A DNA stretch of 64,000 nucleotides from Thermoanaerobaculia bacterium (GTDB lineage Bacteria > Acidobacteriota > Thermoanaerobaculia > UBA5066). Position 1 is the stretch's first letter. Each line of letters opens with the position of its first letter. The notes under the pieces were generated by a model. The model worked only from the letters and a program-made list of their open reading frames with translations, had not been told where the DNA came from and ran no database searches. A program made the translations under genes and the position numbers. The DNA is taken from the NCBI GenBank assembly GCA_963816185.1, contig CAWFJJ010000021.1, positions 32,001 to 96,000 on the forward strand. The letters run 5' to 3'. This document shows positions 308 to 58,561 of this stretch, piece after piece.

Positions 308-2287
308 CTATTCCCCTCCGTTGCGGACATTCCCGCCGACGGCGGTGCGCAGGAGCTCGGCGACGCTCCAGGCCTGGGCCACGCAGCCGCGCGGGCGGTG
401 GGGTGCGTCGCCGTCGAAGAGCTCCGGGATCTGCCCGAGGCCTTCGCCGAGCAGGAAGTCCGCGAGCGGGGTGAGCAGCTCGCGCATCGCCTCGGCGGTC
501 TTCGGCCCTTCCCCGTTCACGCGGCGGAAAGCCGCGGCATAGGCTCCGAGAAGCCACGGCCACGCCGTGCCCTGGTGATAGGCCGAATCCCGTTCCACGG
601 GACCTCCTTCGTAGCGGCCGCGGTACGCCGGGTCACTCGGCGAGAGCGTGCGGAGCCCGTACGGCGTCAGGAGGTGCTCCTCGACGACCGCGAGGACGTG
701 CCGTGCGAGGGACATGGGAACCATCGAGTGGTGCAGGCTCACGGCGAAGAGCTGGTTCGGGCGGATCGAGCGGTCGCGGATCGACTCACCGGGGCCGTCG
801 ACGCAGTCGACGAGGCCTCCCCCCGATCCGAGGTCCTCGGGAAAGATTCTTAGAAAGGAGGATCGGCAGCTCTCCGCGCGTTCCGCATACCCATTCTCAG
901 AAACTCTTTCTCCGATTTTCCCGGCGAAAGCCGCCATGGTCTTCAGCGCGTTGAACCACAGAGCCTGGATCTCGACTGGTTTGCCTTCGCGCGGCGTGAC
1001 AGGGCGGCCGTCGACCCGTGCGTCCATCCACGTCAGCGCCTCGCCTGCGGCGTGCCATTCAAGGAGAGAGTCCGCGCTCACCCGTATGCCGTAGCGGGTG
1101 CCGCGCTCGTGCCATGCGACGATGTCCGCGAGGACCGTGAAGAGGCGTTCGCGGACGAGCCCGAGGTCTCCCGTCGCCTCCACGTACTGCCTCACGGCCT
1201 CGAAGTACCAGAGTGTCGCGTCGATCGTGTTGTATTCGGGCTCCTCTCCCGCGTCCGGGAAACGGTTCGGCAGCATTCCCTGATCCACATGCTCCGAGAA
1301 CGCGAGGAGGATCTCCCGGGCGACCTCCGGCCGGCCGGTCGTCAGCGTGAGGCCCGGCAGCGCGATCATCGCGTCGCGGCCCCAGTCGGAGAACCACGGG
1401 TAGCCTGCGATCACCGTCGTGAGGTCTCCTCGCGCAACGAGGAACTGGTCGGCGGCGCGCGTGAGCGCGCGCACGACTGGGTCGCGTTTACCCCTCGCGG
1501 CGATCGTTTCGCGTCGGGAGGACTCGGATCTTCTTAGAAGGTGAATGTCGGACGCGGCGCGTGGGGAGACGGAAGCAACGAGGTTCGCGGTCCGGCGCGT
1601 CGTGGCGCCTCCGGAGACTTCTTCGAATGAATAGAAGAGGGTCGACGGATGCCACAGATCCTCGGTGAAGTCGAAGCCACGAGCCCTCTCCTCTTCATAC
1701 TCGAAGAATCTGTACCAGTCTCCCGCCTGCTTCGCCACGCCGTCGTGCGCGATGAAGACCTGGGGAAGACCTCTGTATGGAGCAATCCTGACGTTTCCCT
1801 CGGCGATCTCCACCGTCCGATCGAGATCGTCGTTCTCGCGTGTCAGCGCGTGGAAGTCGCGGAAGGCGACGAGCGGGCGCACCTCGAGGCCGATCGGCCC
1901 GACTTGACCGCCCCGCTCGAGAATCCGCCACGTCACGCACACGGTGTTCTCGCCGTGCGGCATGAAGACTTCCTTCTCGACTCCGACGCCGTCGGCCTCG
2001 AAGACCCATGTCGGAAACGGCTCGAGTCGGAAGTCCATCAGGAAGCGGAAGCCCTCGGGGTAAGTCGTGCCGGGGTAGCGATTCGTCGAAAGGTCGATGC
2101 GCCGGCCGCCCACGAGGAGCGTCTCCTCGACTTTCGACAGGAGCACGACGCGGCCGACGGGCGGTTTCGTGGCGGCCACGAGCAGGCCGTGATACCGGCG
2201 CGTGTTCTCGCCGGCGACGGTCGACATCGCGTAGCCGCCGAGGCCGTTCGTCTCGAGCCACTCGCGCCCGTCGGGCCCGGCAGTCAC
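308..2287 (-). CDS. Glycogen debranching enzyme / amylo-alpha-1,6-glucosidase
   Basis: C-terminal part of ORF 308..4861; [58 protein letters not shown] overlaps upstream TGA. Confidence 0.93.
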
Positions 2288-57275: not shown

Positions 57276-58561
57276 GCGCTCCACGCCGCCTCCCGCGGGG
57301 CCGTCTTGCGGGAAATCTCCGCGTTCCGGGCAGCAAGAGCCTGACGAACCGCGCTCTCGTCGCGGCCGCGCTCGCGGAAGGGGAGAGCGAGCTGCTCGAC
57401 CCGCTGGATTCCACGGATACCCGTGCGTTGGCTTCTGCGCTCGAGCTGCTCGGAGCGGAGATTTTCTTAGAAGGTGTGAGGTGGCGGGTCGTCGGACCGA
57501 TCGGCTCGAGCGGCCACTCGAACTCGGAGGTTCGCATCGACGTCGGAGATGCCGGAACGCCGGCGCGTTTTCTTGCGCCCCTCCTCGCGGCCGTGCCGGG
57601 ACGTTATGTTCTCGACGGCAGCGCCCGGATGCGGGAACGGCCGATGTCTCCCCTTTTCGAAGCAATTCAAGCCCTGGGAGCCGATGTCAGGTTTCTCGGG
57701 CGGGAAGGCTTTCTCCCCGCCGCGATCCGCGGCGGCTCGCTGCACGGCGGGCGGGTGAAGATTCGCGGCGACGTCTCCTCGCAATTCCTGTCGGCGCTCA
57801 TGCTCGTCTCGCCCCTCGTGCCGGGCGGCATCGAGCTCGAGGTCGAAGGGCCGATCTCGTCGGCGTCCTACCTCGCTCTGACGCGCCGTGTCCTGGACGG
57901 CTTCGGAGCTTCTCCGGGAGGCGGTTACCGGCCGGCGCGCTTTCGCGTGAGCGGCGACGACTCGGCCGCCTGTTTTCCGATCGCGGGCGCGATCGTTTCT
58001 GGAGGACGCGTGACGCTGCGCGGTCTCGCGCGAGAGTCGGAGCAGCCGGACGCGGCGTTCCGTGCGTGGGCGGCTGCCGCGGGCGGAAGGCTCGAGTGGG
58101 AGAGAGCGCCGGACGGCGAGGCGGCGCTCACGGTGAGAGGGCCCGAGGGCGGCGCGAACACGCTCCTCCTCCCCGTCGACGCGGACATGGACGCCGCGCC
58201 GGATGCCGCGCTTCCTCTCGCAGCGCTCGTCGCGTTCGCCGCCGGCACGTCGCGCCTCGTGGGCGTCGCCCGCCTGCGAGGGAAGGAATCCGACCGCCTC
58301 GCCGCCGCGCTCGATCTCCTTGCGGGCGCGGGCTCGACCGCACGGGAGGAGAGAGACCGACACGGCCCCGTCCTCGTCGTGGACGGCCCGAGGGGAGTGC
58401 CGCGAGCCGCGAATTTCGTCGCGCACGGAGATCACCGAGTCGCCATGGCGGCCGCGGTTCTCGCGCTCGCCCTGCCCGCCGGCTCGACGCTGGACGACCC
58501 GGGCGTCGTGGCGAAATCGTGGCCGGGGTTCTGGGAAGCGTGGGAGGGTCTCATCGGGTAG
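57272..58561 (+). CDS. aroA: EPSP synthase
   Basis: PGSKSLTNR, AGT.ARF, RERPM, SSQFLSAL, KESDR, DHRVAMA, KSWP; TTG overlaps upstream stop. Confidence 0.95.
   Translation: MSAPRRLPRGRLAGNLRVPGSKSLTNRALVAAALAEGESELLDPLDSTDTRALASALELLGAEIFLEGVRWRVVGPIGSSGHSNSEVRIDVGDAGTPARFLAPLLAAVPGRYVLDGSARMRERPMSPLFEAIQALGADVRFLGREGFLPAAIRGGSLHGGRVKIRGDVSSQFLSALMLVSPLVPGGIELEVEGPISSASYLALTRRVLDGFGASPGGGYRPARFRVSGDDSAACFPIAGAIVSGGRVTLRGLARESEQPDAAFRAWAAAAGGRLEWERAPDGEAALTVRGPEGGANTLLLPVDADMDAAPDAALPLAALVAFAAGTSRLVGVARLRGKESDRLAAALDLLAGAGSTAREERDRHGPVLVVDGPRGVPRAANFVAHGDHRVAMAAAVLALALPAGSTLDDPGVVAKSWPGFWEAWEGLIG

Follow-up and report, generated by a model that had tools for sequence, protein, structure and literature searches.

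A hyper-abundant, lineage-specific DNA word in convergent inverted doublets in an uncultured soil genus of Acidobacteriota

Why does one short AT-rich word recur, in either orientation and in unrelated genes, along a stretch of GC-rich bacterial DNA? The stretch (hereafter the window) comprises 64,000 nucleotides of a Thermoanaerobaculia bacterium (assembly GCA_963816185.1, contig CAWFJJ010000021.1, positions 32,001 to 96,000; G000:C21:32001-96000 in our numbering), and the word is the 9-mer TTCTTAGAA. The assembly of this genome, G000, holds 5,088,052 bp in 30 contigs of 62–69% GC. An original prediction made from the window alone had reported seven exact copies of the word or its complement, and all seven are present, at 847, 1531, 13484, 50458 and 57464 on the forward strand and at 18929 and 30888 on the reverse strand. 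It proposed a signal at the level of DNA and offered three candidates, namely a nucleoid or chromosome-organising protein site, an uptake-like sequence, and the end or target of a small mobile repeat. The origin and function of hyper-abundant words are long-standing questions, and the present word adds a case from an uncultured soil genus of Acidobacteriota.

The finding is strongly non-random. The first estimate was well under 0.1 exact copies per window; the computed expectation is 0.08, against 7 observed; none of 100 dinucleotide shuffles of the window contained more than one copy, and shuffling synonymous codons in the window's genes likewise left 0.08 expected copies. Across the genome (5.09 Mb) the exact word is counted 337 times (forward 165, reverse 172), compared with 27 + 31 for the same word read backwards and 10–60 for each related 8–9-mer. 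Genes were called with our own crude caller, which scores codon log-likelihood (4295 genes, 88% of the genome, starts approximate). The coding sequences (CDS) so predicted hold 170 exact copies, against a mean of 4.9 (sd 2.0, maximum 9) in 12 synonymous-codon shuffles within genes, a 35-fold enrichment under a codon-aware null. Since codon shuffling, named in advance as a possible refutation, leaves so few copies, the enrichment is not a codon or amino-acid effect. The word belongs to the class of lineage-specific hyper-abundant DNA words. Full-text literature searches on TTCTTAGAA and on Thermoanaerobaculia repeats, with supplements outside their scope, found no published account of the motif; the matches listed for the word stood in eukaryotic, viral or primer contexts, and none of the listed papers on Thermoanaerobaculia dealt with genomic repeats. 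A 16-mer query of viral contigs was uninformative, with single matches only among those listed.

The word is the core of a longer site. Aligned on the core, the 337 copies share an oriented, asymmetric signal of about 45 bp, (GAR)n-GAT-TTCTTAGAA-GGTGAAKRGGG, in which a purine-rich run (about −20 to −2) and [G/A]A[T/A]T lead into the core, followed by G-G-[T/G]-G-A-A and a G-rich end; the purine/pyrimidine context first noticed in the window is thus present in the aligned flanks, and its profile is identical for CDS and intergenic sites. The core is not a perfect palindrome, as it differs from its own complement at the centre and its flanks are asymmetric. The central positions vary, with 287 copies of TTCTTCGAA and 64 of TTCTGAGAA/TTCTCAGAA in G000; because they tolerate change, the core is best given as TTCTNNGAA, with TTCTTAGAA and TTCTTCGAA as the favoured forms. 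A weight-matrix scan returned 935 sites at a score of 16 (189 in a reversed-sequence control, which is imperfect because the site is nearly mirror-symmetric) and 712 at a score of 22 (48 in the control). The 935 sites group into 491 loci, and the scan recovered all eleven one-mismatch copies found earlier by eye (894, 8485, 11893, 13399, 30785, 30809, 38421, 39250, 47990, 48022 and 49194).

About two thirds of the sites sit in convergent inverted doublets. Among weight-matrix sites, 297 of 329 convergent neighbours (+ then −) lie less than 300 nt apart, as against 15 of 317 divergent ones; for cores with at most one mismatch, close pairs make up 244 of 304 convergent versus 23 of 297 divergent cases. 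Core-to-core spacing has a sharp onset at 65 nt, a peak at 74–79 nt and a median of 94. A doublet reads, in order, purine run, GAT, TTCTTAGAA, GGTGAAKRGGG, spacer, the reverse complement of the same, and pyrimidine run. The spacers are 72–75% GC, unconstrained in sequence and variable between species. There are 242 doublets, 129 of them within one CDS, 79 wholly intergenic, 33 straddling a gene end and 1 spanning two genes. GC by codon position is 0.75/0.59/0.79 in genic spacers and 0.70/0.50/0.83 in flanking coding DNA, compared with a flat 0.72 in intergenic spacers, which indicates that genic spacers retain codon periodicity in the host frame. A spike in spacing at 93 nt corresponds to 12 paralogous Ser/Thr kinase genes; in each, the doublet occupies the same two positions within the catalytic domain (LPEEF[L/F]EGEE ... 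YSFEEIPG), always with a spacing of 93–94 nt. Several of these paralogues are clustered at C24:~602,900-621,000 of G000 and others lie on other contigs.

The idea that copies are written into genes holds for 169 exact copies in predicted CDS, while about half genome-wide lie elsewhere (153 intergenic, 15 at gene edges). Intergenic DNA, which makes up about 12% of the genome, has ~6.6 times the density of exact copies seen in CDS. Weight-matrix sites fall in CDS in 585 of 935 cases (63%), catalytic domains among them. In general, sites occur where sequence is permissive, that is, in intergenic DNA, linkers, loops and signal peptides, and in catalytic domains too. All four stop-free frames are used, and the earlier observation of both orientations and several frames is confirmed: exact CDS copies read TTC TTA GAA (50) or nTT CTT AGA (41) in sense and nTT CTA AGA (21) or TCT AAG AA (57) in antisense, and the two stop-containing frames have no copy in CDS. 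A peptide motif is excluded, because four frames are used and intergenic sites have the same context. Sites make up 0.5% of CDS bases and contain 79 of 521 TTA codons (15%), 256 of 3673 AGA codons and 53 of 1175 CTA codons, in line with the claim that they force rare codons. The doublet architecture, the large intergenic share and the restriction to one genus described below are additions to the original prediction.

The taxonomic range is narrow. The 14-mer GATTTCTTAGAAGG is present in 9–94 copies in 29 of 29 genomes of the focal genus (soil, uncultured) and in 0–5 copies in 8 genomes of the sister genus g11, and it was found in none of 26 genomes from eight other genera of the family. The 9-mer has 79–346 copies in all 18 sampled genomes of the focal genus and 2–45 in g11, where doublets are also present, 64–176 nt apart; in 12 genomes from two other families of the order it has 0–4 copies (these include the unpublished G019 and G024, on neither of which the conclusion depends). 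No comparable word appeared in 200-kb samples from each of two outgroup genomes (G022, G021). An 18-mer of the extended motif matched at least 117 stretches in a collection of species-representative genomes; among the 80 matches listed, 70 were titled as Thermoanaerobaculia, Acidobacteriota or Acidobacteria metagenome-assembled genomes, and the other 10 were single matches in unrelated taxa, which we take to be mostly AT-rich.

Comparison with relatives shows how sites arise and persist. Syntenic DNA was taken from five relatives in the genus, with amino-acid identity mostly 70–95% over 50 window genes. Genic sites stand at orthologous positions and are altered by substitution, not insertion (examples are the glycogen-debranching-type gene GDE, AroA, KdpC and alanine racemase). 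In the alanine racemase gene (Ala_racemase_N), G000 shares a doublet with G039, a genome of the sister genus, the right copies having 22 bases identical, and a third copy in G000 arose purely by substitution. The core is a local peak of conservation, with an identity of 0.72–0.74 versus 0.55–0.63 on either side over 104 site-by-relative comparisons; all nine core bases are kept in 25 of these and at least eight in 58. The gain at 847 sits in a block of many substitutions. Purine tracts differ in length between species, copies can duplicate locally, and intergenic sites also turn over by indels.

Taken together, these observations lead us to favour, with some reserve, the reading that an oriented, lineage-specific signal of ~45 bp is built around TTCTTAGAA and recognised in double-stranded DNA by a putative sequence-specific protein or machine. 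That the signal acts at DNA level, as originally proposed, is supported by the codon-aware enrichment, the use of several frames and both orientations, the shared flanks, and rare synonymous codons kept in orthologues. The convergent doublet with its minimal spacing suggests that a reader would engage two inverted half-sites at once. The word would be retained against the GC pressure of the genome, with sites accumulating at permissive sequence, either through biased transmission of word-bearing alleles, as for the uptake signal sequences (USS) and DNA uptake sequences (DUS), or through weak selection for binding, as argued for the cyanobacterial word HIP1. As to the reader, an uptake or recombination-type self tag is a serious possibility though not the expected outcome, a site for a nucleoid or bridging protein is rather more doubtful, and other readers would make up the rest; none of the three original candidates is established, and the mobile-repeat end fits genic sites worst, given gap-free alignments and spacers that are unique in 214 of 242 doublets.

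The explanation that survives best beside it, which we nevertheless regard as unlikely, is a non-autonomous mobile element resembling a REPIN (a doublet of repetitive extragenic palindromes, REPs) or a miniature inverted-repeat transposable element (MITE); the doublet would then be the replicative unit moved by a transposase, and genic or single copies its decayed or domesticated remnants. Inverted doublets with a preferred spacing would fit such a unit, as would the closer approach of paired copies to the consensus (218 of 484 exact, versus 119 of 467 single copies), but 214 of the 242 spacers have no similar spacer elsewhere (the largest cluster, of 12, is the kinase family) and the doublets form no hairpin and show no covariation. 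The intergenic excess, the clumping of loci, the local duplication of copies, a copy number ranging from 2 to ~350 among related species, and a complete canonical doublet even in a g11 genome with only 6 copies all agree with mobility, and one locus carries a doublet, a singlet or nothing among species by way of indels; genic sites, by contrast, align to relatives and outgroups with no gap, and their differences are substitutions. Convergent pairs at 1–5 kb, which could represent an autonomous element, were not in excess. A Y1 transposase of the REP-associated (RAYT) type was not found in G000, other transposase families not having been searched for, and Y1 is present in 4 of 28 other focal-genus genomes versus 30 of 34 genomes of nine motif-poor genera. 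The gap-free alignments, the unique spacers, the failure to see an autonomous copy and the scarcity of Y1 in the genus argue against a simple pasted-in element for genic sites. Across the family, the Y1 (IS200/RAYT-type) domain runs inverse to motif abundance.

Markedly less probable is an element acting in RNA, such as a bidirectional terminator, an RNA-stability element, an Hfq or ribosome-binding site, or a translational pause site. The intergenic left copy lies mostly 10–75 nt past the stop codon of the upstream gene on the same strand, the sequence of purine run, GC-rich middle and pyrimidine/T-rich run outwardly resembles a two-way terminator, and a doublet gives one purine-rich copy in the transcript from either strand; yet the 585 sites in CDS include catalytic domains, where a terminator would harm, and few intergenic regions of at least 80 nt contain a site (150 of 968 tandem, 34 of 424 divergent and 15 of 156 convergent). 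Unpaired genic sites have no sense/antisense preference (36/26 exact, 109/130 with one mismatch). Folding was assessed for pairs no longer than 130 nt, 45 of the 79 intergenic and 45 of the 129 genic ones; spacers folded no better than shuffles (median z −0.45 and −0.62, versus +0.16 for random genomic pieces). The left and right core variants (A or C) are independent, identical in 82 of 242 pairs versus 72.6 expected, so that pairing between the two copies is not what is kept. The downstream half (AGAAGGTGA) resembles a Shine-Dalgarno sequence, and the half-site at 8485 lies in a 5′ leader 11 nt before an ATG, but a start codon with a coding frame follows only ~20–30 of 933 sites. For 8001-18000 of the window, no RNA data set was listed. 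The window has no Rfam family at gathering score, with one weak, chance-level match in 47800-50800. An RNA element is argued against by this absence of strand preference, structure and covariation, together with the sites in catalytic domains.

Least credible of all is that the word arose, with no reader and no function, as a side effect of mutation, repair or base composition (a sequence-specific bias of mismatch repair, say, or slippage within GAR/TTC-rich DNA of low complexity), since the low-complexity surroundings (321 copies of GAAGAAGAA in the genome), the variable purine-tract length, the local duplications and the repair bias discussed as a neutral source for HIP1 in the accessible part of one account (PMC5861425) are set against a 35-fold enrichment of one 9-mer with a conserved asymmetric 45-bp context, a core that is a local conservation peak, convergent orientation and minimal spacing not expected of slippage or repair bias, and outgroups of the same GC that lack the signal.

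Several other ideas were dropped. A splice site, intron or eukaryotic origin was set aside because copies occur in both orientations inside bacterial genes, and a promoter because the distance between hexamers is unsuitable and the copies point towards one another. A general start-site or ribosome-binding role founders on the few sites before start codons, and an intrinsic terminator on the lack of a stable hairpin with a T run and on the majority of sites in CDS. A replication-oriented signal of the Chi or FtsK-orienting polar sequence (KOPS) type was rejected as site orientation has no bias along GC skew in G000, and regular or periodic placement as the loci are clumped (coefficient of variation, CV, 1.41). 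On inversion at the doublets, contigs of four DNA runs, whose cover is fragmented and shallow, were uninformative, with no strand-change joint there.

The reading of a signal on double-stranded DNA has points against it as well. No reader protein was found. The density, 1 site per 5.4 kb and 1 locus per ~10 kb, is well below the ~1 per kb of USS and DUS, and pairs 65–300 nt apart and unstructured are unlike the overlapping terminator pairs of known single-copy uptake signals. ComEC, DprA and two secretins are encoded, but likewise in 6–11 of 14 control genomes, so competence genes do not discriminate. An architectural role gains no support from loci that are clumped, not regular, nor from the helical phasing of doublets, which is not significant (R 0.141; 95% point of the null 0.157). 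At one solute-binding-protein gene the doublet is whole, halved or absent through indels, which means that substitution is not the sole route. Moreover, all genic and intergenic counts rest on the crude gene calls, and the Pfam check of host proteins covered 13 window proteins.

Within the window, the weight-matrix scan gives 28 sites, 10 of them beyond those originally listed and mostly of the sibling core TTCTTCGAA. The glycogen-debranching-type gene (308-2287, −) carries two groups. A doublet at 847..902, spanned by the GDE_C domain (aa 278-647, Pfam), has cores at 847-855 (+, TTCTTAGAA) and 894-902 (−, TTCTGAGAA); it aligns without a gap to 9 genus orthologues and 6 outgroup sequences, and at the left core 3 of 10 genus sequences read TTT CTA AGA ATC and the others TTT CTC TCG GTC in the same columns. 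A site group in the linker between GDE_N and GDE_C, at 1531..1708, has cores at 1531-1539 (+, exact), 1619-1627 (+, TTCTTCGAA) and 1700-1708 (−, TTCTTCGAG). Here the rare codons CTT CTA AGA are read in 8 of 10 genus orthologues and CTG CGG and similar in outgroups, with no gap, and the coding frame is unchanged from one side to the other; one of the outgroup sequences (L015) comes from the unpublished G019.

Further sites lie in conserved enzymes and transporters. In the 5-enolpyruvylshikimate-3-phosphate (EPSP) synthase AroA (57272-58561, +), a doublet at 57464..57664 consists of an exact core at 57464-57472 (+), read F-L-E at codons 65–67, and a degenerate partner at 57656-57664 (−, TGCTTCGAA); the core is identical in G011 and G008, and G003 and G004 differ at several bases in the same columns with no indel. 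The exact core in KdpC, at 18929..18937 (−), reads F-L-R-R (GSFLRRKE) and is kept or nearly so in 3 of 4 aligned relatives, the fourth (G003) having other bases and an adjoining 15-nt gap. In ChrA (30223-31437, −), the linker between the Chromate_transp halves contains, at 30785..30896, a doublet with a duplicated left copy, with cores at 30785-30793 (+), 30809-30817 (+) and 30888-30896 (−, exact). In 5 relatives these cores stand at orthologous positions, with indels in the spacer; the frame is retained in 4 of 5 genus sequences, and the outgroup linker is of similar length.

A site group at 13399..13641 covers a gene junction, with cores at 13399-13407 (+, TGCTTAGAA) in the N-terminus of gene 12086-13465 (−), at 13484-13492 (+, exact) in ApbE's C-terminal tail (19 nt upstream of the start codon that follows), and at 13633-13641 (−, TTCTTCGAA) in ApbE; in all three relatives that were aligned, the ApbE junction site persists, as either TTCTTAGAA or TTCTTCGAA. 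Single sites of the form TTCTTCGAA follow within ApbE at 14113..14121 (+) and within gene 15961-16659 (−) at 16267..16275 (−). Antisense single sites are found at 38421..38429 (−, TTCTTGGAA), in the N-terminus of the DUF1223 protein gene 38410-39183 (+), and at 39250..39258 (−, TGCTTAGAA), in a polypurine tract of ~50 nt in the signal-peptide region of gene 39225-41708 (+). Near noise are a weak TTCTTCGAA at 34003..34011 (+), read EEFFEEEE in gene 33865-36534 (+) (score 20.3), and two weak convergent sites 389 nt apart at 36940..37337 in gene 36570-37556 (−) (scores 20.7 and 19.1).

The solute-binding-protein gene (7352-8473, −) has a doublet at its 5′ end, 8354..8493, with one core in the signal-peptide region (8354-8362, +) and the other in the 5′ leader (8485-8493, −). 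Both copies are present in G000, G003 and G007, the left only in G004 and G008, and none in G011, which has 26 nt where G000 has 232. Between this gene and gene 8575-8976, at 8521-8555, are back-to-back matches to sigma-70-like promoters (TTGACT-16-TAATAT at 8548..8521, −; TTTACC-17-TATTAT, +). The ATG of the G011 gene lies only a few bases past the −10 box, and that gene may yield a leaderless message; G000 has, between the −10 box and the remaining gene, a leader plus N-terminal extension, together ~205 nt, with the doublet. No terminator-like site was found in 8300-8700.

A doublet at 47990..48163, which lies between genes 47315-48028 and 48142-49404 or at their edge, comprises cores at 47990-47998 (+, CTCTTAGAA) and 48022-48030 (+, TTCTTAGAG) and a degenerate partner at 48154-48163 (−). 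Orthologues of the 48022 copy are present in 5 relatives, and a 32-nt stretch unique to G000 holds the 47990 copy; over 47975-48180 the cores align in five relatives, the spacer has many indels and copies duplicate locally. The region 47960-48200 has no excess structure (z −0.45). Along 47315-49404, a gene for a 237-aa PMT_2 fragment is followed by the doublet and then by a 420-aa open reading frame (ORF) without a Pfam match, and these may be parts of a single glycosyltransferase gene that is divided, or joined, at the doublet. Gene 48142-49404 (+) also holds a convergent pair 269 nt apart (48925..49202), with cores at 48925-48933 (+, TTCTTCGAA) and, in a long purine tract, 49194-49202 (−, TTCTTGGAA).

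An exact core with full consensus flanks, at 50458..50466 (+) in the ORF of a PMT_2-type membrane protein (49364-51259, −), directly adjoins a second repeat, and its flanks are not alignable in 4 relatives. This neighbour, ~170 nt at 50478..50650, is not part of the motif. It forms two long hairpins, one GCGGCGGCTGCTGATGCAGCCGCCG-like and the other TTCCCGAATGRCCGATGTCAAGGG...CCCTTGACATCGGYCATTCGGGAA (RNA fold z −7.08 versus shuffles), and had no Rfam match. The genome has 19 full copies (e.g., C25:~105018 and C28:~410425), 13 of them within 150 nt of a motif site, compared with 4% of random positions, and the repeat often sits within a doublet, with one motif copy on either side. At its outer end (ATTTCTTATATG) it is similar to the motif. 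Its identity could be that of a small RNA gene or of a MITE with motif sites as targets.

In the long purine tract at 11893..11901 (+), a single site TTCTTTGAA lies antisense in the N-terminal region of the FMN_bind gene 11368-11973 (−). Contig depth over 11675-12342 sums to 36–46 in one soil DNA run, versus ~1–9 elsewhere, and loose contig ends near there read into the structured repeat; the depth and the loose ends point to a multi-copy element near 11937-12056. Elsewhere in the genome, the 9-mers AAAAAAAAA and TTTTTTTTT were counted 1083 times at 68% GC, overlapping windows included, which suggests some long homopolymer runs.

Whatever its reader, the word distorts codon usage, marks the genus in metagenomes and allows tests of drive versus selection in metagenomic populations. 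The graded natural series, with none in eight genera, 2–45 copies in the sister genus and 80–350 in the focal genus, brings phylogenetic profiling for the reader protein within reach. As a tentative proposal, and one that we would sooner expect to fail than to hold, the word may represent a new class of genome-wide self signal in Acidobacteriota, an inverted-doublet tag for a putative uptake, recombination or bridging machine. Such a tag would spread by biased transmission, rewriting coding sequence even in essential enzymes; if true, it would be the first USS/DUS-like drive system outside Proteobacteria, with a doublet grammar absent from all the known systems.

To our knowledge, hyper-abundant short words are known from a few lineages only, namely USS and DUS in two proteobacterial families and HIP1 in cyanobacteria. 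Other comparisons concern repeats that are inserted as units. Rickettsia palindromic elements are repeats inside ORFs, in-frame insertions of ~100–150 bp that share internal sequence and are translated as extra peptide segments. The present repeats likewise sit inside ORFs, but their genic sites arise by substitution and their spacers are unique. The same two properties separate them from a MITE or an in-frame inserted repeat, save for the one intergenic locus that varies by indels. With REPINs, whose spacings are 71 and 110 bp in the accessible part of the original description (PMC3116915), they share two inverted copies at a preferred spacing of ~70–110 bp, a spacer less conserved than the ends, hundreds of copies, vertical inheritance, and doublets better kept than singlets. 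REPINs, however, are extragenic, each REP is palindromic, the doublet forms a hairpin and a RAYT gene accompanies it; of the present sites 63% fall within predicted CDS, the doublets lack a hairpin, and G000 was found to have no Y1 transposase.

HIP1 (GCGATCGC), as far as the available portion of one study reports, is over-represented 15–300 fold, conserved between genomes and of unsettled function (PMC5861425), and a second, likewise available in part, ties it to methyltransferases (PMC4390886). Like HIP1, the present word is hyper-abundant under a codon-aware null (35 fold, versus 15–300), lies within and between genes, is conserved between genomes, and gives no sign of a peptide, RNA or gene-regulatory role, to the extent that the same portion covers these roles (PMC5861425). 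Unlike it, the word is asymmetric, confined to one genus and AT-rich against a genomic GC of 68%, whereas HIP1 is a perfect, GC-rich 8-bp palindrome, phylum-wide and without oriented flanks or doublets.

The likeness to USS and DUS lies in a short oriented word with an extended asymmetric context, in hundreds of strand-equal, lineage-specific copies, in genic sites at permissive positions and in several frames, and in a core conserved amid diverging DNA. According to the parts of these sources at hand, USS stand at poorly conserved residues (PMC2817400), and DUS occupy permissive regions yet are conserved, with some gains via recombination (PMC2397512); the gain at 847 in a block of substitutions recalls the latter, for which a recombination origin is reported there. 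USS and DUS reach roughly 1 per kb in the same excerpts (PMC2817400, PMC2397512), a density five to ten times that found here. Genes acquired recently are reported to contain few uptake signals. In the passages available, known uptake signals need one copy, and their close inverted pairs overlap or stand no more than ~21 nt apart and act as terminators (PMC7811141, PMC2397512), unlike the unstructured pairs 65–300 nt apart described above. The present word also has long purine-tract flanks and belongs to the phylum Acidobacteriota, and a role in uptake is for it a proposal. It is set apart from the known hyper-abundant words by its oriented 45-bp context and its inverted-doublet grammar.

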